Shown here one piece after another: positions 12,072 through 59,184 of a DNA stretch of 64,000 nt. Position 1 is the stretch's first letter. Each line of letters starts with the position of its first letter. Position numbers and translations under genes: made by a program. Under the pieces are notes generated by a model. The model saw nothing but the letters and a program-made list of their open reading frames with translations, searched no databases and was not told the DNA's origin. The DNA lies in contig JADEYG010000003.1 in NCBI GenBank assembly GCA_016906335.1, positions 248,001-312,000 of the forward strand, read 5' to 3'. Source of the DNA: Novakomyces olei (Eukaryota).

Positions 12072-12305
12072 AAATATATATATATATATATATATATATT
12101 CATTAAAATGCGTTTAGTGTACACTCGTACAATACGAGTAAAAGTAATTGTCGACAATTTTTATACGTTCAATACATTCGTGATTTAGTACAAACGTGAC
12201 AGTAAACGCTGTGTCGGTATCGACCGCGGCCTTTGATTTACAACAATTCTTGTATGACTATTAGAGTTTATGAAATATTAGACGGTCTACTACTATAATA
12301 TCTAC

Positions 12306-12701
<396 letters not shown>

Positions 12702-12722
12702 GTCGCAATCAACGATTCCAGA

Positions 12723-13820
12723 ATGGCCAGCGGATTGGACCAGACTTTGGACGAAATTATTGGCTCGCACAAAGTACTGCAGCATTTTGACGACAACGCG
12801 CTAACAAACAGAACGGCCGTTCACGGCCTGAGCGTAGTTCTCGTCGTGCAGAGCCATATAATAAGGTAAGAATTGCGCAAAACTTGGAGGATGTTCAACG
12901 TGATAAAGACCTTCTTCTAATCTAATGCGCCTTGCAAAGGTATTTGAATTTCGGCTACTTGTCGATGACATAAACTAACTCGACGGGAAATAAGCCATCG
13001 GACTCTTTTACAATCGGCAAAATCGCTGTAGACTCGTATCGTTATTCAGTGTATTCTTTGCTTTAACACAGTGTAGGAAACGAGTCCGGTTTGAAAACAT
13101 ACATTACGACATCACTCAAGACGATTTGGAGGTAATTATTGCCGCTTGCCTGCTCATAAATTTATCGCTTGACCTATGTACTAATTGAAGAAACTCGTAT
13201 CTTCATTGGATTCGAATGCCAAAGTCAGGCTCAATTACGATAGGGCCGGACGCTCTGAAGGCACGGCGGAGATCAATTTTTCGTCTGCAGAAATCGCAGA
13301 TGCTGCTGTGAAAAAGTTTAATGGGGCTCCTGCAGCAGGTATTGTCTTCTTTGCTTGGCTAAGTCTTTTGGTTTTTTAAGTATTGTCTTGACTCAAGTGT
13401 TTTTTTGTCCTTGTTTTTCTATATTTTGCATGCTCGTTTTTATATTTAATATTTAATATTTAAATATTTGTTATTAATTTTAAATTTTTGATAATAAACA
13501 TTTTTTGTCGTTTACTACTCATGGCTAACGAATGTCAAGGACAGAAAATTAGCGTTTTCAAAGTTGCAGAGGGAAGTCGGCGTAGTTCATCATTAGGTGA
13601 ACGTATTCATGGATCAAGGCCTCTTACCGTTGGAGGACCTGGAAAGTTCAGACGCGGAACTCGACCACGTGGCGCCGGTAGGGGAGAGAAACGTGACTCT
13701 CCGCGAGCTAGAGAAGCTCCAAAATCACAACAAGATTTGGATGCGGAATTGGATAGCTATATGAACCAGGCGACAGAACATTCAAAACCGGAACAGGCAT
13801 CGGAGATGAACGTTGACTAG
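12723..13820 (+). CDS. YRA1: mRNA export adaptor Yra1/Mlo3/ALYREF family
   Basis: N-box LDQTLDEII; RRM (VRFENIHYDITQDDLE...YDRAGRSEGTAEINF); C-box KSQQDLDAELDSYM. Five-intron model; exon 3 boundaries are less certain. Confidence 0.8.
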
Positions 13821-16298: not shown

Positions 16299-19107
16299 AT
16301 GTCCCAGGTTCCATATGCCGTCACAGAGCTACTACGGCGCCGGCAACGGCGCCGTGTACCAGACAGCGAGCGGAAACGTGGCCGGTTGGCCTGCTCATTA
16401 TGCCGACGCAAAAAGCTCAAGTGCGATGGAAGTTTGCCCTGCCGAAATTGTATGAGAGCCGACGTGCCATGCAACTTTGTCGCCTCTCCGGCCCCCGATT
16501 TGAACACAACAAAACAGTAAGATTTAAGAGACATGAAAATGATTAGAAAAAGATTTAAATCAAAAAAAGAAAAGAAAAAGAAGAAAAAAAAAAGAAACGG
16601 AGATACAAATAAATCAATCTCTAAATTGAATCAGAATCAAATTCTAATGGCACAGACACGTGCAAAACTTGGAACGACGTCAGATTCTGTTGGAAGAGAT
16701 TGTGAAACGGACGTATCCCCTTTTGCCGCTAGATACCTTTTGCTTGGAACCTTTAGTGGAGGAAATAAAGCAGCGTGACGATTGCCGTGCTTATATTGAT
16801 TCACTGGACTCGAGATTCGCAGTGGATGCAAAGATTGTGGCGGATTCAAAAACTCCCCCTCACGATGGAACAGGGACGTTGGAAAATAAAAAGAAAATTG
16901 CGGAACAAGCGCCGCTTGCTGTAGTAGACGGGGTTGGCAGATTACTAATAGAAGCAATCGGGGTCACACATTATATAGGCGAATCAGCTGGATGGTGCTT
17001 TATCGATAAAATTAGACATTTTGTGGGAATGAACGCGTTCAAATACGATGTGGTTGAGCATTACAAACAGTATATTTCCGGGAATACTACTTTCCAAGCA
17101 GTTTACACTCCTCATTCTGCATGCAGCCTTATTCCCGCTGAACCAGCCTTGAACTATTTCATTGATTGTTATTACAAATGCGTTCAACAATGCTATTCCA
17201 TAATTCACCCTCTCGTATTCCAGCAAAGGTTCGATGCCTTAAAACGTGATCGGGAAACTCCGGGTTTTGCTCAAAGAAATATCGACGCACCATTTGTTTG
17301 TGTGCTTCTTATGATGACAGCTCTAGGCCGTGAATTTTGCAATCTTTTGGACCCAGTGAATCGGCCCTTTGCGGCCGATTCGCCTGACGCGAAAAGTGGA
17401 AGCGTATATTACGAGGCCGCTCGATCGCTGGTGCCTCAAATTATTGGCAGTCGTAACATATGTTCAATCCAGGCAATGATGCTAATGAGCATCTTTGCGC
17501 AGAGCACCCGTGAGCGCGATGTCGCTTACACTTACCTCGGAATTGCACAAAGTCTAGCTATTTCATCGGGTCTGCATAGATCTTGTTCCCTAGAATCTTC
17601 ACAACAAAAGGCAAATAAGCTGGAACTGCCCGTAGTCGAGCTGAGGAATAGATTATGGTGGTCCTTGCAATGCCTAGACCGGTTTCTCTGCTTATCATTG
17701 GGCAGACCTATCTCGGTTTATGCTACAGAATTCGATACACCGTTGCCGAGCGAGCTTCCTTTGCTGCATTCGGCCTCGAGCAATACGTTTTACCTTCGTA
17801 CAATGGCGAAAATATCAATGCTTAACGAACTGGTTTCATTGAAGATATATCAACTTCCAAAGGTATCATCCTTGAAGTGTTGTGCACTCGACTTCAGTAA
17901 TTATTTTAATGAATTAAGAACTCAAAACTCAATCTCAACATTTCAAATATAAATTTTCGAATTTGAAAGCATTCACAATTTTTACAATATTTACAATTTA
18001 CGTATTTGCTCTTTTTGTTTATTTAATTGACGACTAACGATTCAGTATTCGACAGCTAATAATGGCCTATTATTTGCCCGTGCACAACTCGTTGTTGACG
18101 AATTGAATCAGTTCGAGATTGAATATATTCCTCAGCTTGACCTGACAAAAGCCCCGCCACGATCCTATCAGTTTCGAACAATATGTTACATAAGACTGCA
18201 CTTTTACCAAACTGTTTTATTAGCCACACGGCCTTTTCTGCTTTACAAAGTAAAAAGGGGATCTGGTCTTGAGCAATTAAATATCCTTACTGAAAAGTGT
18301 CTTGATGCTGCCCGTGCCCAAGCTCACTTGTTGTATGAGCTGAAAAAGAATGATTTAATATCTTTATTTTCCTTTTATGATTATCATTTCTGTTGTGCCT
18401 GTCTTTTTGTGCTGTACTTAAACGAAGTCGCTTCTACTGCTGATGTGCGAAATATTGAGGCAATGAACAAGGGCCATTATGTACTGGAGTACCTTGCTAA
18501 TGGCCTGGATGCCGCAAAGACTAGCCTCGAAATGCTTCGAGAGCTTGAGGCTGCCGTTGTCCTCTGTCACTCGAGATCGCAGCCTCCTTCTCATTTGGCA
18601 GCACAGCCTTTACATGCGGCAATGGATAATGGACTGCTGTTGGAGAATGCTCAGATCAGCAGTAGCATCGAGCAACCAGCTGCTTTGAATTTACAGCCTG
18701 GAAACTTTAGAAGTCAGCATAGAAAAGGGAAACGCTCTCAATCAAACAGCACAGACTTCACTGCAATAAACAAAGAAAGGGCGAATAATAGTACGAAATT
18801 TGTAGCGCAAAGTCCGTCTCAAAACGACTCTAGGCCAACCAGAAAAGACAATGGCTTTAAAGCCAAAAATTGTCCTGATACATTTAATGTCGACTGTGAA
18901 AAAGGCGCACTTGTCCAGGATGAAGGCATTAAATTTGGTACTGCAAACTTTAATCTGGACAATTGTAGTCCGTCGTTTGAACAGATTATTGAATTTGTCA
19001 ATCAAGACTTTAGCTTCGAGGCTAATATGGATGCATTTCTTCCCTGGGGCTCAAGCATCATCGAAGAGCCAATTCCGTTTGACGACAGTTTAGGTTATAC
19101 GTTTTGA
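16299..19107 (+). CDS. Zn(II)2Cys6 transcription factor with fungal middle homology domain (candidate proline-utilisation regulator)
   Basis: ACSLCRRKKLKCDGSLPCRNCMRADVPC; two introns join the three ORFs; SGLHR...RNRLWWSLQCLDRFLCLSLGRP; acidic C-terminal tail. Confidence 0.88.
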
Positions 19108-19193
19108 ATCAATACGCAACAGCCTACTGGAGCGCAAACAAAAAGTATACGCTGATGCTCTGTACATTTAATCGGTCTTTATACACAATGAGG

Positions 19194-21644
19194 CTATACA
19201 TGTACAATCATATGATCCCGCTCGAGCTTTTGAAACTCGTAAACGACCCGCTCGTATCCCTTGTAGAGCTCAGCTGAGCTTTGCCTACGATCAGTCGTAT
19301 TTGCAAATGAAGCATCGTCTTCCGATGCAGAGGTAGCAGGCCGGGAAGCAGGCGGAAAAGTCTCGTTTTTCAAATGGTAAAGCGATGCGACAAAAGCATC
19401 GTTGAATATCTCGTCGATTTCAACGGGTCGGAACTCTGGCACAGATCCATACCCGGTGCGCCTGAGCTGCACTGCCTGCTCAAACTCGTGCCGATCCAGG
19501 ACTCTGGCCAGGGTAGGCAGCATTTCAGGGTCAATAACCCTATCGGCACTACCCTCATATTCAGCCAGGCGGGTGGCGACCCGGGTCAGCCCGTTTTCAC
19601 CGACGACGAGTACCAACAGTCGGCGCTGGTACGGGGAAAACGTGTAGCCCAGTGCACACAAGGACTCCCGGATGGAAAGTGCCTTTTGTGAAATAAAAGG
19701 CACGAGCGTACAGGCCTGCAAGCAGGCATCCACACACGATGAAGAAGGCGTAGACTTGACTTTGCCACCAATGAGCTGTGAGAACGCGTCGATAGCGAGC
19801 TGAGGAGCTCCGCATTGGAGGTAGCACTCAACAACGAGTTCACGAATAAAGGTTTCATTGGCAAAGTTTGTAGTTTGCAGCCCGTTTAGCACTCGGCGTA
19901 ATGCCGGTTCGCTGCGGAACTTTTTCAATCCTTGAATCATTGTTTCATAGAGCTCTGGAGATGATTGGAAGTGTGCTGACCTTTGGATGTCTGCGAAAAT
20001 ACGGAGCGGCCGCTGTACGTCACGGTCGTGCTCTAGCGACCACTGCAAAAATTCCCAATAAATTTTGGGTGATATTTGCAGAGCTGCAGATGCTGATAAA
20101 ACACAATAAATTTCGAAAATAAGGTCAGTAGGGTACCCGTGGCCTTTTGCTTTTCCACCATTTGCTTTTCCGCCTTTTGTGTTTGTGAAAAGGGTACCGA
20201 TTGCATTTATACAGGGCCGTTGTGCTTCTGGATGCTTTAATGCGAACTGTAATATAGCCATTAGTGGCTCTTGCAGTGATGCAAAGTCCCTTTCCTCTGT
20301 TTTACAGTACTCGACAGCACACGCAATACACTCTGCGAGATCGTTGGGCCTTATTTTCGGCCCTTGATCAGACGATAAGAGCGAGAGCACGTTGGCCAGG
20401 GAGATTGTTGTTTCATCAGTAATGGCAGAGATTAGTAAATGTTTGACTGCCCTGCTCTCCAGATCAGCAGGCATTTGCATGGCTTGGACAATGTAATTGG
20501 CAAGTTTGCCGTCCCCGGCCAACAATGAGGCCAGGAAAATCAAGTACTGTTTCTCCTGAGGCCCTACATTAATGTTCCAGCCAATAATCGTTATAAGCGC
20601 GTTTCCAATCGTGGCTAAACCCAGCTTTGCTGACCTTTCCAGTATTAAATTGAACGTCTCAAAGTCCGGCAGGCCCTTGGCTCGAAACTCTGGGGCTTCA
20701 AGTTTATCAATAACTTGGTCGATACATGCCTTTTCGCCGCTTGATAGCTTGACAAGCAGACGCAAGTTTTCCCGTGTTGTTTCCCTTACATTAAATTGGT
20801 CTAAAAGACACAACAAGTATTTACATCTCTCCAACGTTTGCCCAACCTCCCCCGGCCGGGGCAGAATTAGATCGCTGCTTAAAAAAAGGCTAAATGTCTG
20901 TGAATCCGGCGCCGGACCACGCGCCACCATCTCCTCGAAAACGCCCCATGCTGGCTCCATCATACCAGATCGTAAAAACCGGGATATAATAGCGTTGTAA
21001 GCGGCCAGGGGCAGGACGGGAAAGAGCGAGCTAGCCAGGTCCAGTGCGCTTGTAAGAGCAGCAATATCATCGCTAGCAGCAAATGCTTCAATAAAATGCG
21101 CCCAATCATCACAGTCAGCACTGCATGTACCAGAGTCGGACCATTGCAAAAGCGCTTTGATAGCAAACTCCTCTTCTCCAGCCCGGCAGAAATAAAATAT
21201 GGCCATTTGCATAAAATCAATAGTCTTGTCTGCCACTTTTGCAAAAACGGCTTTCGCTAGTCGGACATGGCTTGCGCTGGTAGTCGAGGCTGTTGTAATG
21301 GCTTCAAAGAAATATTGGAGACCTACGCGAGTTACAGGATCCAATTCCCGGTCCAATTGCTCAAATGCCTCTGCGTAATGAGCAGCCTGATCTTGAGAGG
21401 GACAAGGCTGAACTTTGCTCTGTTTTATGGACTGCAACAGCCGATCAAGCGACACTTTTTCCAGAGATTTCCGCTGAACCCACGATTGGAACAGCTGCCG
21501 AAGTCCGGCAGTGTGGTTAGTAGAGGCTGCTGAGCTATAACGCTTCTCATTAGAGCGCAATAAAATGCCTCTTGCTCTTGTACACCCGCTAAATTCGTGC
21601 GCTACTTCGCGGCCGCGAAGACCGCGGGACACGCACTGCCTCAT
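19194..21644 (-). CDS. Mitochondrial PPR-repeat protein (possibly CIA84-like)
   Basis: Intronless 816 aa; Arg-rich presequence-like start; clear PPR motif AYNAIISRFLRSGMMEPAWGVFEEMVARGPAPDSQTF plus degenerate repeats. Confidence 0.7.
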   Translation of the reverse strand: MRQCVSRGLRGREVAHEFSGCTRARGILLRSNEKRYSSAASTNHTAGLRQLFQSWVQRKSLEKVSLDRLLQSIKQSKVQPCPSQDQAAHYAEAFEQLDRELDPVTRVGLQYFFEAITTASTTSASHVRLAKAVFAKVADKTIDFMQMAIFYFCRAGEEEFAIKALLQWSDSGTCSADCDDWAHFIEAFAASDDIAALTSALDLASSLFPVLPLAAYNAIISRFLRSGMMEPAWGVFEEMVARGPAPDSQTFSLFLSSDLILPRPGEVGQTLERCKYLLCLLDQFNVRETTRENLRLLVKLSSGEKACIDQVIDKLEAPEFRAKGLPDFETFNLILERSAKLGLATIGNALITIIGWNINVGPQEKQYLIFLASLLAGDGKLANYIVQAMQMPADLESRAVKHLLISAITDETTISLANVLSLLSSDQGPKIRPNDLAECIACAVEYCKTEERDFASLQEPLMAILQFALKHPEAQRPCINAIGTLFTNTKGGKANGGKAKGHGYPTDLIFEIYCVLSASAALQISPKIYWEFLQWSLEHDRDVQRPLRIFADIQRSAHFQSSPELYETMIQGLKKFRSEPALRRVLNGLQTTNFANETFIRELVVECYLQCGAPQLAIDAFSQLIGGKVKSTPSSSCVDACLQACTLVPFISQKALSIRESLCALGYTFSPYQRRLLVLVVGENGLTRVATRLAEYEGSADRVIDPEMLPTLARVLDRHEFEQAVQLRRTGYGSVPEFRPVEIDEIFNDAFVASLYHLKNETFPPASRPATSASEDDASFANTTDRRQSSAELYKGYERVVYEFQKLERDHMIVHV

Positions 21645-24389: not shown

Positions 24390-24987
24390 CTACAAAGGTT
24401 TTTCTTCGTGGTTCACGAACGCTTCACGTTTACCACCGGTCCCAGCAGATACGTCCGCATACTCAAGCTCATCATCCTCGTCGTTCCCATAGACTTCCGG
24501 GTGCATTCTAAAACAGTTTTGCATTGCTTGGAACTGATCAATGCAGTCAATACCCTTCGGCTCCTTTTCACTGTACACAAAGCACGAGAAAGCCATTTTA
24601 AACTGCTCTCCACAGGGCCCATGAGCCATTCCACCCAAGCAGGGACAGTCCCAGTTTATTTCACCAGTCTCTGGGTTAAAGGCTGCCTGGTTCTCTCCGC
24701 CAGCTTCGTGTTCAGCGACCTCGGAGGACACATGACTGGCAATCTTGGCTCCTGAGTCTTCGCTCCCAGACGTGTTGCTGCCTCCACTAGGCTTTTGTCC
24801 GGACTTTGTATCAGCAGCTCCACTGCCCTGACCTCCGACTGAAATTGCATCAGCTTGATGCCTGGAAGATGAGTCTTGTTTACTAACGCCAGAAGCATGC
24901 TGTTTTTCGTGGTCAATTCCTAGTACTGTGTCACCAATCCTGTGAAGCAGGCCAGGCTCTGTATCGTTTCCAGATTGATTAGCAGAA

Positions 24988-25052
<65 letters not shown>

Positions 25053-28000
25053 AACAAAGCTTTGCCTTGCAGCATCATTAGAATCGCGCTTGGCATAATC
25101 CGCAGAGTAACTTGAACCATTCACAGAAGCATGCTGCTTTTCATGATCAATGCCCAAGACTGTATCTCCTATTTTATGAAGAAGACCAGGTTCAGTATCG
25201 TTCAATGGCTGAGACGCTCCTTCAGCTCCGCCTTTCAGCCCTCCATGACTTTGGCTGAGGCTATAGTGTGTTTTATTTTTATCGCCAAAGCCGTCCTGAG
25301 CGCCGTTTGAAGTGTACGGGTGAAGGCCTGTATAGTACCGATCTGACGCGGAAGCATTTGCAGAAGAATTGGAACTGACATCTCCGCGGGAATAAGACAA
25401 GGCCTCGTTGCCAGACTCTCCTCGGCTCTGGTCATAAGTGCCCTTGCCTTGAACAGACCCAGAATGCTGTTTTTCATGGTCTATTCCAAGGACACGGTCC
25501 CCTATTCTATGCAGCAAGGGCGGCTTTTCCTGTTCATTCGGTGGAGTTGGCAGCTGTCCCCGACTAGTGGCCGAAAGAAAACTGCCCTGAGCAGTTGAGG
25601 ATCGCGCTTCTGCCTCACTCAATGGTCTGAACCCGCCCGTGTTGTCTGCAACAAACAAACGGCCGTTTATATCGACAATTTCTTGAGATCCCGATTGATC
25701 AGATCTTGACTGATCAGATCCCGACTGATAAGATCCCGACTGATAAGATCCTGACTGATTATAGCCTGGTCCCCTTCCGTTATAGGCATCTCCATCACGA
25801 ACAAACTTGTAGCCATCATTGTCGTTGCTAAAATTGACCGCAGCAATTCGGTCATTGGCTCCTTTAGATGCCTCACTATAGCTAAAATCTTCAAGGACTC
25901 TTCCATCGTATTGAACTGCTTCTCTTATTGCCGATTTGCTGGGCTTTGCATCATTATCTCCTCCCAGAATCTGATTACTATAATCTTGCAATTTGCCTGC
26001 TCCATCCTTCAAATGCTGCTCAGCTGACCGGGCAGCATCAGAGACTTTGCCTGTTAAATGATCAACGTCCTCCCGAGCCCGACCGGCCCACTTGCGTGCT
26101 TTATCCTCACCCTTGTGAATCAGGTCTTGCAAGTCGCCGTGAAGGTCGCCGGCTTCCTCCTTTGTTTGTTCATACTGCCTGGCTAAATCTGCTCGGAAGT
26201 TGACGTCCTGGTGCGGGGAAGAGTCATGGTCTTTTGCATGATCTGCATGGTCAATTCCGAGCGCTTTGTCGCCCAGTTTATGCAGAAATGAGGGCTCGTC
26301 AGCGTTCTGTCCATGATCTGCTTTGCTTCTACTGTCTTGATTGTCACTGGCAGTTGAATTTGTCAATATTTCTCCTGTTTTACCTATCAATTCGCCTGCC
26401 CGATCGACTGCCGCAGAGCCAATCTGACTTAGGCTACTGCCTTCAACGCTTCTGTCTTGATCATGCTCGTCAAATCTGTACTGTCTGTTTTGAGCATGAT
26501 CTCTCTCGTGATCAATGCCGCGTACCGTATCACCGAGTTTATGCAAAAGCCCAGGATCACTACTGCCATCATTGCCGCTATCGAAAGAAGCGTTCCTCAG
26601 ATTCGCAGTACCATAAGCACCGGAATCAGTGTACGATCCTTGGCCAACTGATCCGCCCACGTATGCTGATCCGGATGGTGTATTCAGCTGGCCAGGCCCT
26701 TCCATGCCGGGACATGCCATCTCCGCATAATCTTTGTCGATCTTGATGCCCCTGATTGCTCCACCTGTTGTTGGTCAGATTAGATCGAAATGATATATGA
26801 GAGATAAAAATGTGAAAGAAATAGGGATTGACAGAAGTAAAGATTCGACAGAGAAAACCAAATAGAATACATATAGAAACAAGATTAAAAAAACAACAAC
26901 ACAAGAACAAAATTGGGTTATATTAATTGTTAAAAAATACATATCATTTATTTTCAGATTCATAACAATTTAAAAAAAAACATATAGACAAATAGGGAAA
27001 AGTACCGTCTAATCTGTCATCTTTCGAAGACCCGTCAAAACCCTCCTTCGAATAAGAAAGAGTTTCGTCTGGAGAGTTATCATTTGCACGATCAATAGAA
27101 CGTTTCTTTGCCTCTTTATTACGACGACGGTTGATTTGTGTAAGAGCCAAAGCAGATACAAGAAAGGCCAATCCTCCCAGAATCCAAGGATTTTCACGAT
27201 TATCGTGAGGCTGACCTGAGCCAGAGCCAGAGCCAGAGCCAGAGCCAGAACCTGAACCTGAACCTGAACCTGGACCGGAGCCAGAACCTGAGCCTGAGCC
27301 AGTGCTAGAGTTTCTGACCTTTCCCCCTAAACCTGCAGCCTTTTCAGACGTCGCTTTCAAGCTTGATTTGACAGAATTTGCAGAGGATACTAGACTGTTC
27401 ATCATACTGGACAATGCAGCGTTCTTTGGAAGAAAAGTATTGTCAGATTCCTCATTCAGCTTTCTAGCGGCTTCAAATCCATCTTCGGCATGATTTGAAT
27501 CTGACTTTCCAGATCCTTGTTCCCTTGATTGGTCGGGGTACTTTAATCCCGAACCGTCTCTTGCATTAGGAGCCTGCAGCCTTTCCAGTTTAGCGTTTGG
27601 AGACGCATGGCAGGATGAGCCCATCTTTTGACCAAAAACGCCCTGGTCAGGTTTGGTGGAGCGGAGAAAAGGACCTTGGCGGTGAGTTAATGAAACATTT
27701 TCTTCATAGTTGTTTAGAACAGGTGATTTACCAGTAGCAGCAGACGCAGGCTCGGACTTGCCGGCTATGCTTGAGCTCTCTGCCGAGGACTTGGAGTCTT
27801 TTCCGATTGGTCCAGAGTGTGTCTGTTGAAAGTTGGAGGCAGACGAATTGACACCGGAAGTGCTCCGTCTTGCAAAGGGCCAAAGACTCGGCATTCCTTC
27901 ATCCTCTGCATGGTATCCCATGCCCTGAGTGGGCTTTCTTCCTTCAGAATTCTGTGCAGAGAGACCGTCTGCCAAGTCGGAGCCGCTCTGATCATTCATT

Positions 28001-30170
28001 CCGCGTTTCTTATTGCCTTGGCCGGTAAAAGATTCAGACGAAAGGGCTGAAGGCTGGCTGCTGCCAAAAGTTCCATTGCTTACAGAATGCTCATCCGCCT
28101 TTTGAGCTCTGAGACCTTGATCCATTTCATTTCTAGAAGACGAAGCCGAACTTTCACTCTTTTTCATTAGACCGGCTGCTCCAGCAGCAGCCGTCGGAAC
28201 AAGCCCTGAAGCAAAAGCAGGAATAGAGTTTGAGGAAGGCTGCTCGGTTTTGTCACCAGATCGAGTCGCTCCCGGTCTATGGCCAGCAACGTTCAACGTT
28301 TGATCACGGAGCAAACTGCTGTGTTGTGCTCCGTTCGGGAACCTTTGACTCACCATCCCAGAGTCTGTAATATGAGGCTGACAGTAGCTGGTGCTTTTAT
28401 TACTGCCCGTAGAGCCCTCAGGCTTTGCAGAAGTCTCATGGCCGAGTCCAGCCACGTCTAAGAGAGCATTGTGTGGCAAATTAGCGGTATTTATAGTCTT
28501 GTTTCCGGTCTCATAATTTGAGGCATTTTCCGGCTTTTTCAACAAACGTGCTCCAGGCTTATTAGCACTAAAATTAGTGACAATTCTGTTATTGCTGGCA
28601 ACGTTCCCATCCGCATCTTTGCCCGCATTTTTAAATAGAGGGCCAGCGTACGATTTGGGTACATCAATTCCAGCGCTGCTTTGACGATTGTTAGGACGAT
28701 TATTTGCTTCAAAGGCGGTTGTTGGAGTAGAGCGAGAGCCAGTGCTTCCTGGGCTTTTCGTACTCTCCAAACTAGCTCCTGCTTTTGCTGCTGAGCTAGT
28801 GGCCTTGGTGTTTACTGAGGATTTATTTGAGGCTGTATTATGGCTCTCGGCAGCTTTGTATCTAGAAGCAGAGCTGTGTGCTTTAGTGGGGGAACTGCTT
28901 GCTTTGGCCGGCGAGGGCTTTGCTGTAGAATCCTTTGCTGGCTGTTTAGAGTCTGATTGCGCAGATGAATGGACAGAGCCCCTTGTCGAAGACTGTCTCC
29001 GCGAAAGAGTGCCCTGCGCTTTTTGAGCGCCTTTGCTAGAATCATTTTGAGCCTTTGAGCTTTTCAAATCAACAGATTTGCCCGAGCTTCGATCCTTATC
29101 ACCTGGCAAAGACGAAACCGAAGGGCCAGCAGTACTAGAGGTTCCAGACCTTGCAGACTTTGAAGCTGTCGAATTTCCAGATACTTTGGAAGCGTCAGAA
29201 ACACCAGGACTGGACGCGTCCTTTTGAGCACTTTTCCGCGGCCTGCCTCGAGTTGCAGCAGCCTTCACGTCCCCCTGGCTGCCTGCAGAAATTTCTGATT
29301 TACTATCGGCACTAGATCCACCCTTGCCTGTCGCATTTTTGGACTTGCCGGTCTTGGAGACGTCACCGGATGAGCTACCAGCCTGGATAGAGCCTTTACC
29401 CTGCGCTCCAGATTCTGATTTTACCTTACCTGCAACTTTTGCCGATCGTGCGGCAGTAGTCTCGGAGCTTTTGGACTTTGCCGACGCTGCATTATACGTG
29501 TCGCCCGTTTTATTTCCCTCATTTGCTCCATTGTCCGCACTGGCAGAGGCGGCTGAGCCTTTCCCACCTTTCCCACTTTTGCCGTCAGTGGCTGTGGGTG
29601 TAGAGAACTCTGAGCCTCCAGTCTTGGCACCCGCACCAGCGCTTGCGAGAAGGGTATCTAGAGCATTAGTTGAAAGCAATCAAATTAATCGGTTTGTAAT
29701 TAGAAAATTAATAATTAAATTGAAACGCAACAGAGTGTCTCCTCCCCCGGTAGCTTACCCCTTGCAGGCCGTCCACGTCCACGCTTAATTGGGGCAGAAG
29801 CAGTGCCGGACGTGAGCGCGTCTATCGTATTTCGCTGCAAATCGAGCGATACAAAAGCACCTCGAGCACGTCGATTGTGGGGACTGTGGAGGTATACTTT
29901 GACGTTTGACAGATGCACTTCGTCGCCGGTGACGGTAACACTCTCAGACGGAACAGAAGCAGAGCCGGAAGAGTCTGCAGCGGCAATTGCTGGACTAGAG
30001 CCAGCTGGCTGCTTTGACTTTACTGCCAGAGGCCGTGTAGAAGACGAAACAGCGTACTCCCGCAGAAGCGAGAGCGGAGAAAAGCGGCAGGGAGGCAAAG
30101 CAGCCGCGCGCACACGCAGCTGCCCGGCCGTTTTAGCCGCTCGCGATATAGACCACGGTCTTGTGCTCAT
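24390..30170 (-). CDS. MIA40: Giant Mia40 mitochondrial IMS oxidoreductase/import receptor, ~1812 aa (3 exons)
   Basis: Exons 30170-29759, 29657-27006 and 26764-24390 total 5439 nt and join in frame through two phase-1 introns. C-terminal [25 protein letters not shown]9-C...C-X9-C; presequence-like start; TM segment [18 protein letters not shown]. The Mia40 domain is certain; the fusion is inferred from splice signals. Confidence 0.8.
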
Positions 30171-35010: not shown

Positions 35011-37081
<2,071 letters not shown>

Positions 37082-39845: not shown

Positions 39846-40646
39846 CTGTTTGTAGCATGATGCTTTTCTTATGAATAAAAGATAAGATTTCTTTTTATTT
39901 TGGGTTTTTTTATTTATTTTTGGTTTCTACGCAATTTTTATTTTTGAATTGTGAATTACGGCCTTGCTCAGTGCGGGCTGGTAATGGCAGACTGATGGCC
40001 TTTCACTTCTTTTTCTGTTTACCGGTTTCGAGTTAATCATCATCTTTTTCCCAACTATTTATTTGTTCTCCTTTTATTTCACTGTTTCTGGTTTGGCTTC
40101 TTTCTTTCCAATGTCTTCTTGGGATGTAGATGGACTACATACTGGGTTAAGTATAGCAAATAGCATAAATATCGGCTAATTCATATTGATCACTTGATTT
40201 CATAGACTTGACTCATTCCATTAGAGCGAGATAGAATGGCTACAATGAGGAAGAGGCAGCAAGAGTTTTTCCAGTTTAAATTCGCTGCTTCATGTTACAC
40301 AAGTCAAAGAGAATATCAGCTATAGACATTTGGGCTTTGATACGTAAAATTAACGGAGTAAACTCCAAAAATAAAAGAAATAATTGCCGAGAAATCAAAA
40401 ACCAAATTGAATCCCAGACGCATACTTTGAACATATCCGTAGTCTACAAACGACTTTTCACAACTCAAGACTAAATCATTGTCCATCCTTAATATCGGCA
40501 GTGGGAACAAAATCATTGCCGATTTACTGTTTGTTGATAATAAGTCAAATAAATTATTATTCAACTAAATTATTATGAAAATAATTCGCTCGCCTACTGT
40601 TTAATAATTTATTAATGACAAACCGCCTAAACAAAAAGTAGTCGAA

Positions 40647-42063
40647 ATGGCGTTTTTGGCGCGCATTGGCCTCGGCCACGCTCAGCGTGTTCTTCCACGC
40701 GCATTTAAGCTTCAGTGCAAAATGGTTGCGCCCACAATCTGCGGCTGTGCTCGGCGATGGCAAAGTTCAGAGCGAACAGAAAAAGATGATTTATTTCGTT
40801 TGGAGCGTACAACTGAAGAGAAAATGCAACATTTGCGCTCACAATTGGATCAGCCGGCAAAGCCTGTTGGGCTCTTGACCCGATTGTTTAGAGCAAATTT
40901 GCGTGTTCTTCACACGCTGGTGGGAACAGAAGTCTCTGAAGATTTCGCCCGTCGGTCACGGGAAGGAAACCCAATACTCCTCTACGAACTGGGTCCTCGG
41001 CAGCAATGGGCTTGGCGTAACGTTTTCCGTATAGTTCCGCTGATTATGATCTACTTTGTGGGCAGTTTTGCCTTTGACAACCTTCGGCCTGTTTCCGATA
41101 AGCCGGAGCTTGAACTATTTCGCGTAAAATGGACGGGCGCTTCGGCAATGGAAAAGTTTTGGGCTATAAATGTAGGGTTCCTGTCTATAATGTGGATGAT
41201 TGCCTCTGTTGCCTCTTTGAAAATACCGCAAAGGTTTGTACCCTTTCAATTACCCGACTGACGATAGAATGGTGCGGCAAATTGAGTATGATCAGAGCTC
41301 TAGATCACTCCATATTTTTCTTGGTCTCTCAAAACCGATTTTTACCTCGTCCCCGGCACCATTAATTGTTGCCGCACGAGACGTGACTTTGCTGTCTAAG
41401 CCTCCGAGTATGTGATGTGCTACTTTAATCCGTCAACATTGCCTTGATGATTTATTCTTGAACCAATCTTTTAATCTTTTAATCTTTTAATTTTTATTTA
41501 ATTATTCAATTTTTATTTAATTTTTATTTAATTATTTATTTCTGCCAATTTTTGATATTTTGGTTCATTGTTCCGATCCTGCAGCGTCTCTTGCCCTTGT
41601 CTAACATTTAGCTTTTAAACCGAGTTTGAGTGAACGTGTGGGCCGACTACGCGTGAGCACGGGCGGAAAAAACAAACTTACTCTTATCGACCTGGACGGG
41701 AAATTCTCGCCGGCCTGGCTCGATCTTCACCCCAATGACTCTGTCGAGTGGAACGATGAGTTCCCCTCTAATAACTCTGTACCCGAACTTATCTGGTCTC
41801 GGTATATGAAGTATTCGATAAGGCCTATACGTGCCTTTGGGGATATATTTTTCTATAGTGGACCTGAAGAAAGGGGGTTGATGATTCAGCGTATGCTACG
41901 CGCGAGCGATGCTTCACAGCGCGAGGCAGAGGATTTAGAACGCCGAGGAGTAGACAAGCCAGCTGTTCAGAGGAAAGTGGAAGAGTTATTAAGGCAACGA
42001 CGGGCGGCCGCTGCTGCCGCAAGGGCTGCTTCTTCTACAAAGGCTCAATCACCAGAGGCCTGA
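40647..42063 (+). CDS. Mitochondrial two-TM protein, TMEM223/Mrx15-like
   Basis: Presequence; two hydrophobic segments followed by IPQR|MVRQIEY...LIDLDGKF; two introns. The family call is by eye. Confidence 0.5.
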
Positions 42064-46870: not shown

Positions 46871-47264
46871 GCCTTGTCCCGTATTTATAGTTCACCGACT
46901 TTTTTGAATATTTTCCGTGTTTATGTTTATCATACTTGAAAAAAAGGCGTTTGATTGCAGACGCCTACTGTGAGTGTTATTTGCGTGCTGTGCATGCCAC
47001 CGATTGCCTTGTGGATGCTTGGCACATTGTGCGAATCAAATTTAGATGGCAACACCTGCGGGTCGATGAGATAATTCGTACTTTGCGCGACGAATGAATA
47101 GCATTTAGAAAGGATTATTTGTGGATTTTGGAGGGCTATAGATGTTGATAGTGACGATCGGTCGTATAGCTAATACCAGATTGCATTGTGCACATGACGG
47201 GTCTGCCGTGTCTATCCTATTATAATAATTGATAGCTAATCAAAGCTATGAAAACGTTGATGTT

Positions 47265-47606
47265 ATAAATTGAATAAATTGAATAAATTGAATAAATTGA
47301 ATAAATTGAATAAATTGAATAAATTGAATAAATTGAATAAATTGAATAAATTGAATAAATTGAATAAATTGAATAAATTGAATAAATTGAATAAATTGAA
47401 TAAATTGAATAAATTGAATAAATTGAATAAATTGAATAAATTGAATAAATTGAATAAATTGAATAAATTGAATAAATTGAATAAATTGAATAAATTGAAT
47501 AAATTGAATAAATTGAATAAATTGAATAATTTGAATAAATTATGAATTGAATAAATTGAATATAAATTATGAATTGAATAAATTGAATAAATTATGAATT
47601 GAATAA
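47265..47606. repeat. 9-bp tandem repeat (ATAAATTGA)n
   Basis: About 29 perfect copies followed by degenerate ones; gives rise to the spurious poly-NKL ORF. Confidence 0.97.
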
Positions 47607-47707
47607 AACAAAACGAATTAAAACCAAATCTATACGGGTATTAATCTCATCACGATTGAACGTTTCACAATCTCAGGGCTGGTAGAGCACCTCCTCCATG
47701 CACCCCA

Positions 47708-58267: not shown

Positions 58268-58980
58268 CTACGCTGTCTGCGCTTGACTAGTTTGCAATTT
58301 CTCTTGCAAGACTCTTGTGACCACTGGATAATTAGCAAAGGCCAGCCACATCAACTTACTTTGGCCTCCGCCCGCCTTTGTATTGATTATGTCTTCGAGC
58401 TTCCCGATACTCGTATCTAGAAATGCTACTTTATCCTTGTAGTATGTGATTGCATCGCTCGATGACTAGTCAATATTAGAAACAAATAAATCAGAAGAAA
58501 TAAAAAAATAAAATAGTATCAAATTGCAAAACAAAAAAACGCAAATTGCAAATCACAAATGCGTCAAACGTTGGAAGGAATTAAAGAATAAACTCGAGTA
58601 CTTTTAATACCTTCTCCACAAAGTAGCCCGTGCCAATATCAACAAGAACGGTGCCTTTCTCAGTATCCAAAGTTCCCGGAACGTACAAGCTGCTTGTTAA
58701 AGGAACCAAAATTTCTTGACCTACAAATTAGCTCAATATTGATTCGTAAAGATTACCATTTTGCCGAGGTGTTATTGTCTTTTCCACCGATAAACGGCAA
58801 TCCTCAAACTTTTGGCGCGCACTTCGCAATTTTGTGTAAGAGTCTGTGAGATGTTCTAATTCTTTCTCGATCTGCTTTCGCATTTGATCGAGCTGTTGAG
58901 GCTCGAGAGAAGTCAAATCAACTTGCAAGTTAGTTTCGTCTATCAGGCGACTTACGCTTCTTTGCCTGAGTGGACGCCAT
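58268..58980 (-). CDS. GIM5: Prefoldin subunit 5
   Basis: Four-intron model: [11 protein letters not shown]...[14 protein letters not shown]...[13 protein letters not shown]. Confidence 0.94.
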
Positions 58981-59007
58981 TTTGTATTATCGTTAGGCCT
59001 TGCGTCA

Positions 59008-59184
<177 letters not shown>

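Follow-up and report, generated by a model that had tools for sequence, protein, structure and literature searches.

Results

The stretch analysed here, hereafter the window, comprises 64 kilobases (64,000 nucleotides, nt) of contig JADEYG010000003.1 from Novakomyces olei and carries, read from the minus strand, a locus for the mitochondrial protein Mia40. Mia40 acts as central receptor and oxidase when proteins are imported into the mitochondrial intermembrane space; it is known either as a small soluble protein or in a form that a short signal at the N-terminus anchors. The evidence considered below consists of the sequence itself, homology, and codon-usage and composition statistics. Three minus-strand open reading frames (ORFs) follow one another at the locus (Table 1), and an earlier, sequence-only reading of this DNA had assembled them into one gene. 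Indeed, the three frames connect in frame via two GT..AG intervals, and the coordinates and arithmetic of that proposal proved correct on recomputation: the joined model (30170-29759 + 29657-27006 + 26764-24390) amounts to 5439 nt, or 1812 codons with one terminal stop. We consider it probable (roughly 0.7) that a single minus-strand gene of three exons, extending from 30170 to 24390, encodes Mia40 as an 1812-residue anchored precursor.

Codon usage is gene-like in all three exons. The ATG at 30170 is the earliest of the exon-1 frame, which is open from 30218, and the codon-usage log-odds of exon 1 (0.30 per codon) are similar to those of confident genes. The frame of exon 2 is continuous and its codon usage is positive all through, with 0.23 per codon. 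At the local base composition, an open frame of 911 codons would arise by chance with a probability of about 6e-21; the remaining two sense frames across the same stretch contain 26 and 77 stops.

Table 1. Coordinates of frames, exons, introns and sequence features at the Mia40 locus (positions within the window; features in order of transcription).
Feature	Coordinates	Strand	Evidence
ATG-led ORF, 151 amino acids (aa)	29715-30170	-	ORF reading
Stop-to-stop frame, 911 codons	26944-29679	-	ORF reading
ATG-led ORF, 776 aa (frame 776/794 codons)	24390-26720	-	ORF reading
Exon 1 (residues 1-137 and first base of codon 138)	29759..30170	-	codon usage
Presequence-like N-terminus, first 40 residues	30051..30170	-	simple charge features
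RGRP motif 1 (AT-hook-like core), residues 132-135	29766..29777	-	motif
Intron 1, 101 nt, GTAAGC..ACTAAT..TAG, phase 1	29658..29758	-	splice signals in sequence
Exon 2 (residues 138-1022, the last in part)	27006..29657	-	open frame, codon usage
RGRP motif 2 (AT-hook-like core), residues 274-277	29239..29250	-	motif
Single predicted transmembrane/stop-transfer segment, residues 961-979, basic cluster after it	27133..27189	-	Kyte-Doolittle
Candidate intron 2, 241 nt, GTACTT donor..CAG, phase 1	26765..27005	-	splice signals, composition, codon usage
Exon 3 (residues 1022-1812 and stop): acidic hydrophilic linker, then Mia40 core	24390..26764	-	codon usage, homology
ATG (Met 1037), start of the 776-aa Mia40 if two genes are assumed	26718..26720	-	
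Linker with five ~20-residue motif copies (core LLHK/R-I/L-GD..LGIDHE), plus (SG)n and SYQSG repeats	24879..26561	-	
Mia40 catalytic core: CPC (1728-1730), CX9C pairs 1739/1749 and 1762/1772	24474..24686	-	motif, homology

The identity of the product follows from its C-terminus, where the last ~90 residues form, as judged from their sequence, a canonical Mia40 oxidoreductase core. All six Mia40 cysteines are present between residues 1728 and 1772. The core matches the solved core of yeast Mia40 (2zxt) with an E value of 3.5e-35 and that of the human protein (2k3j) with 1e-27, and Cys 1728/Pro/Cys 1730 aligns with the CPC motif of the yeast structure. The Pfam family CHCH, whose model spans one CX9C hairpin only, scores 27.0 bits here (E 4.7e-06), just short of its cut-off of 27.2. 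A library of 1.84 billion representative proteins contains 1332 matches, 997 of them at E ≤ 1e-10 and 396 at E ≤ 1e-30. The best 150 of these 1332 matches align solely to the core region (query residues 578-791), and the best core matches are spread over Pucciniomycotina, Ustilago, Aspergillus and yeasts. CPC and twin CX9C motifs together with the match to 2zxt bear out the assignment of the C-terminus to Mia40, and the order of parts proposed along with it, namely presequence, basic low-complexity sequence, transmembrane segment, hydrophilic repeats and catalytic domain, holds in the joined model.

Intron 1 can be regarded as established from the sequence. Exon 2 has no ATG in its first 434 codons, so that its frame needs an ATG from upstream and the intron is effectively required; exons 1 and 2 must therefore be joined, for which the canonical GTAAGC..ACTAAT..TAG interval is suited. 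In the joined protein no Met occurs in residues 2-571.

Candidate intron 2 was compared with a local yardstick of ten introns in the window, taken from joins that are demanded by homology or by a missing ATG. Nine of these have the donors GTATGG, GTAGGG, GTAAGT, GTAAGA (twice), GTAAGG, GTACGT, GTATGT and GTAAGC, and the tenth has either GTATCA or GTAATT; G occupies position +5 in 9/10, the first YAG follows a CTRAY branch motif at a distance of 5-36 nt, and lengths range from 55 to 363 nt. Relative to this set the length, branch site and acceptor of the candidate are ordinary, and its branch-to-acceptor geometry matches, with CTAAT/CTGAC motifs 9 nt before the CAG, which is the first AG. The acceptor lies 44 nt upstream of the ATG at 26720; if the intron is retained, the frame stops at 26944-26946. 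The remaining in-frame GTs within about 60 nt (GTTTTG, GTTTTT and GTTATG) all make worse donors than GTACTT, and GTCAGC at 27215 has C at +3 and would remove the transmembrane segment. Although the donor GTACTT deviates from the local pattern at +5, it is not alone in this respect: the intron required by a transcription-factor gene of the window lacks G at +5 with either of its possible donors (GTATCA or GTAATT), which shows that weak donors are spliced in this organism.

Codon usage changes at both ends of the candidate intron. Scores were derived by setting 7879 codons, taken from 14 pieces confidently assigned as coding, against the trinucleotide frequencies found in flanks and introns. Immediately ahead of the donor, 19 codons score +2.9, whereas the 19 codons that would be read through to the stop at 26944 score −9.3, a value as low as that being found in 2 of 766 coding windows and in none of ten true C-terminal tails. 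The score stays negative across the candidate intron and is positive again from the acceptor. The 14 codons upstream of the ATG at 26720 reach +5.3 in the Mia40 frame, whereas the two other frames give +0.6 and −1.1. Such a score is attained in 2.9% of 451 stop-free non-coding windows and in none of ten real pre-ATG segments (the highest, ATP2, 4.3). An in-frame join is by itself weak evidence (1 in 3), to which these codon-usage boundaries add support.

Base composition tells a similar story. With 50% T, 10% G and a T minus A value of +26, the candidate resembles the T-rich introns GLC3b, PUT1 and ATP2-1. The gap of 223 nt that would separate the stop at 26944 from the ATG at 26720 has a T minus A value of +18, compared with +5 or less in all ten local 5′ flanks (mean −7.4, standard deviation 7.1) and a mean of +8.3, with values of up to +27, in local 3′ flanks. 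This composition excludes a normal promoter region in the gap, not a terminator. Moreover, where a promoter has to fit between genes of the window, the gap measures about 500-1760 nt, as estimated from the coordinates of a few gene pairs, versus 223 nt here. Taken from sequence alone, these statistics favour splicing of intron 2. The proposal of one spliced gene across this interval is thus supported by codon usage, T-rich composition and branch site, and weakened by the donor. If intron 2 is spliced, as we infer, the sole strongly hydrophobic segment and the catalytic core reside on one polypeptide.

Outside the core the protein consists of unusual sequence. Its Arg-rich N-terminus has 7 basic residues and 1 acidic residue among the first 40, the acidic one at position 38, with an R-x-Y-A type processing context near residues 37-40, and is comparable to the N-terminus of PUT1 in the same window. 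Residues 41-960 are rich in Ser, Ala, Gly and Lys, basic (net charge +40) and of low complexity. Near residue 570 the Met-free, K/S/A/G-rich part of exon 2 gives way to more ordinary disordered sequence. Residues 961-979 are the only strongly hydrophobic stretch, with a Kyte-Doolittle 19-mer score of 1.69, and exon 2 continues for 42 residues past them. The remainder, residues 1022-1812, has a net charge of −46, and its linker motif recurs at residues 1095, 1182, 1439, 1550 and 1628. By their sequence, the two RGRP sites in the basic part are AT-hook-like and no more: against Pfam AT_hook (PF02178) motif 2 obtained 11.8 bits (E 0.24), under the cut-off of 17.4 bits, and motif 1 did not match.

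Pfam families matched the 1812 residues nowhere outside the core, and the ~1650 non-core residues had no relative in protein, ESM Atlas, metagenome or Pfam searches. A near-length protein search with exon 3 yielded no relative among 8000 scored candidates, its repeat-derived search words probably being swamped by low complexity; the corresponding search with exon 2 found none either, nor did exon 2 have a usable match in the ESM Atlas. Metagenome scans with exon 2 and with the non-core part of exon 3 gave pattern matches only, none of which tblastn turned into a relative. The best 150 matches in the library of representatives included no self-like or close relative, the five-copy linker motif was absent from the 165 other proteins compared, and exons 2 and 3 share no similarity (best E 6.1). 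The two huge linkers appear to be lineage-specific low-complexity expansions without detectable relatives. The genome seems prone to such expansion, which fits an origin of the Mia40 linkers by this route. Elsewhere in the window, at 12264-12866, 47223-47640 and 58731-59183, long trinucleotide or short-period repeats can be read as poly-N, poly-Y, poly-L or poly-I depending on the frame; long repeats sit in a trough of 32% GC at 12-14 kilobases.

Length and spacing were surveyed in the best 150 Mia40 relatives, 40 of which show a distinct hydrophobic segment N-terminal to the CPC motif. The 150 have a median length of 260.5 aa. In the 40 anchored relatives the median start of the hydrophobic segment is residue 37.5 and, one apparently fused model at 336 aside, the latest start is residue 94; from anchor to CPC there are 107.5 residues at the median and 456 at most. 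In the joined model, the predicted anchor of the N. olei protein does not lie within tens of residues of the N-terminus, being preceded by 960 residues, and another 767 separate it from the CPC motif, both values beyond those of all best 150 relatives. On either side of the anchor the model is thus well outside this range. The longest credible relatives have 572 aa (Kazachstania africana) and 455 aa (Saccharomycodes ludwigii), and 1812 aa is about three times the length of any credible Mia40 among the 154 listed relatives.

Two kinds of candidate for giant Mia40s in other organisms were rejected. The 745-aa protein P0104 looks like a fused gene model, in which an unrelated N-terminal protein is followed by a Met-led presequence-like stretch and a normal Mia40. 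In a set of 5.8 billion proteins, 178 candidates included four Mia40-core proteins of more than 1390 aa, P0151-P0154 (1443-1554 aa), all of which are helicase-Mia40 fusions from Mucorales. The public models of P0104 and of the four proteins, which come from four Mucorales genomes, are probably annotation chimeras.

Two tandem genes in place of one are a rather unlikely alternative. In this arrangement exons 1 and 2 would run on to the stop at 26944 and encode an orphan basic low-complexity protein of ~1041 aa with its transmembrane segment ~60 residues from the C-terminus, while a second gene would start at ATG 26720 and produce a 776-aa Mia40 devoid of anchor and presequence that is imported like animal CHCHD4. 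The donor GTACTT, with T at +5 instead of the G found in 9/10 local introns, speaks in its favour, as does the usable start context of ATG 26720 (G at −3 and G at +4). An anchor-less Mia40 would also be functionally viable: according to a review (PMC8069373), the anchor of fungal Mia40 is not essential, and the soluble human protein is imported self-catalytically and rescues Mia40-deficient yeast. The T-rich composition of the gap likewise fits a 3′ flank, and as convergent genes in the window may end just 87 nt apart, tight spacing is tolerated in this genome. On the other hand, the last 19 codons of the upstream gene would look non-coding and the supposed 5′ untranslated region coding in the Mia40 frame, each to a degree seen in none of the ten real tails or pre-ATG segments. 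A terminator and a promoter would have to share 223 nt that are unlike all ten local 5′ flanks. The first 40 residues from Met 1037, with 0 basic and 2 acidic ones, are not presequence-like, and two oddities, an orphan transmembrane protein and a fungal Mia40 without anchor, would be needed instead of one.

Quite improbable in our view is a transcript that begins inside exon 2 and is translated from Met 889/890 into a protein of ~924 aa; the 1812-aa form would in that case be a minor product, or would have arisen recently by fusion, in frame, to a gene further upstream. Met 889 and the transmembrane segment are 72 aa apart, within the known Mia40 range, and the first 40 residues from this Met are Ser/Ala-rich and, with 5 basic residues and 1 acidic one, mildly presequence-like; the change in character of exon 2 near residue 570 also speaks for this reading. 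However, the segment from Met 889 contains Arg only once, is acidic at position 21 and is weaker than the N-terminus encoded by exon 1. Neither a boundary nor a promoter-like AT-rich island nor a stop was seen in exon 2, the frame and positive codon usage of which are uninterrupted. The single spliced gene thus remains the preferred reading, against which the weak donor, the start context of ATG 26720 and the viability of an anchor-less Mia40 have to be set. The same direction is taken by the size of the codon-usage tests (14 and 19 codons, with small calibration sets of 10 genes), by the simple hydropathy and charge measures that underlie the predicted presequence and transmembrane segment, and by the lack of any relative, annotated or not, with this architecture among those found. 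Confidence was held at ~0.7 because the donor is weak, the tested segments are short and the evidence is restricted to sequence.

Among the genes in the neighbourhood of the locus, Pfam identified GDH2, RAD21, RPT1, RCC1, PUT1, a Zn-cluster transcription factor, a PPR protein and ATP2, and furthermore a ClpX-like ATPase, KRE6, a TsaD/Qri7-like protein, a WD40 protein and an aldehyde dehydrogenase; another gene we take, from its translation, to be GLC3. The product of ATP2 matches several ATP-synthase beta-subunit structures, presumably from yeasts, almost equally well. In ATP2 (36392-36971, minus strand) a first intron of 363 nt (GTACGT..TCTAAC..TAG) lies right after the presequence exon and is separated by a 55-nt micro-exon from a second intron of 55 nt (GTATGT..ACTAAC..CAG). 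The Zn-cluster transcription-factor gene needs an intron at 17863-18055 (plus strand), for which GTATCA at 17863 and GTAATT at 17897 are the only possible donors; its downstream frame of 358 codons contains no Met for 143 residues. This gene (plus strand) and the PPR-protein gene (minus strand) converge at 19107-19197 with their stops ~87 nt apart, and their 3′ ends probably overlap. A tRNA-Lys(CTT) at 40838-40925 (plus strand), whose length of 88 nt suggests an intron, is located inside an open frame of 217 codons (40608-41258) that has no Pfam match and may not be a gene.

Discussion

How an 1812-residue Mia40 might reach its place can be sketched by analogy with the yeast protein. The Arg-rich N-terminus would act as a presequence for TOM and TIM23, and ~920 basic disordered residues would then be pulled into the matrix until the hydrophobic segment is arrested in TIM23 and released laterally into the inner membrane. 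The following ~830 acidic residues, comprising the five-repeat linker and the CPC/twin-CX9C core, would stay in the intermembrane space, where the core would oxidise substrates with cysteine motifs and presumably be re-oxidised by Erv1. An N-in/C-out topology with a matrix-side domain is suggested by this analogy; the asymmetry of charge, +40 before the transmembrane segment and −46 after residue 1022, fits it and is no proof. The earlier view of Mia40 as an inner-membrane scaffold with a major domain on the matrix side is reasonable as a conjecture.

A further step, which we put forward as highly speculative, leads to a Mia40 that works in two compartments. In the matrix, the basic, RGRP-bearing domain of ~920 residues might interact with mitochondrial nucleic acids or with the import motor, and would be coupled through a single span to a core held on an acidic tether of ~700 residues with five amphipathic repeats. 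Oxidative import of proteins would thereby be tied to a process in the matrix. More generally, a natural Mia40 with ~920 residues on the matrix side of its anchor and a tether of ~770 residues on the opposite side would put to the test how much unfolded sequence TIM23 passes before a stop-transfer signal, whether the distance between core and inner membrane matters and whether the anchor region can gain a second function. Should the locus consist of two genes instead, a fungal Mia40 minus its anchor would be likewise unusual. The interest of the single gene rises further only if its matrix-side region proves functional. For genome annotation, the locus illustrates how a weak donor would lead ab initio gene callers to break up or shorten an essential gene.

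A limited literature search found no oversized Mia40, from which we do not claim its absence from print. In the large Mucorales proteins P0151-P0154, unlike in the N. olei protein, the additional length comes from a DEAH-type RNA helicase with RWD and UBA domains, most likely the product of a neighbouring gene that annotation has merged with Mia40; these proteins lack a low-complexity extension and are not similar to exons 1 and 2. Human CHCHD4/MIA40, which is soluble, has the same catalytic core and could serve as a model for the product of the downstream gene if there were two. In contrast to CHCHD4, which is given as ~16 kDa in PMC8069373, that anchor-less product would have 776 aa and a disordered N-terminal region of ~690 residues. 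By the same review, the import of S. cerevisiae Mia40 (Tim40) proceeds by stop-transfer at TIM23, which by analogy may apply to the N. olei precursor.

Beyond this, the two proteins would, in the joined model, have the overall plan in common, consisting of a presequence (here a predicted one), a single hydrophobic anchor (likewise predicted), an acidic linker and the CPC and twin CX9C core; the core itself is near-identical across ~70 residues. The yeast protein has about 400 aa. What further sets the protein predicted here apart from S. cerevisiae Mia40 and the anchored fungal type is its basic pre-anchor part with two RGRP motifs and the five-copy motif of its linker.

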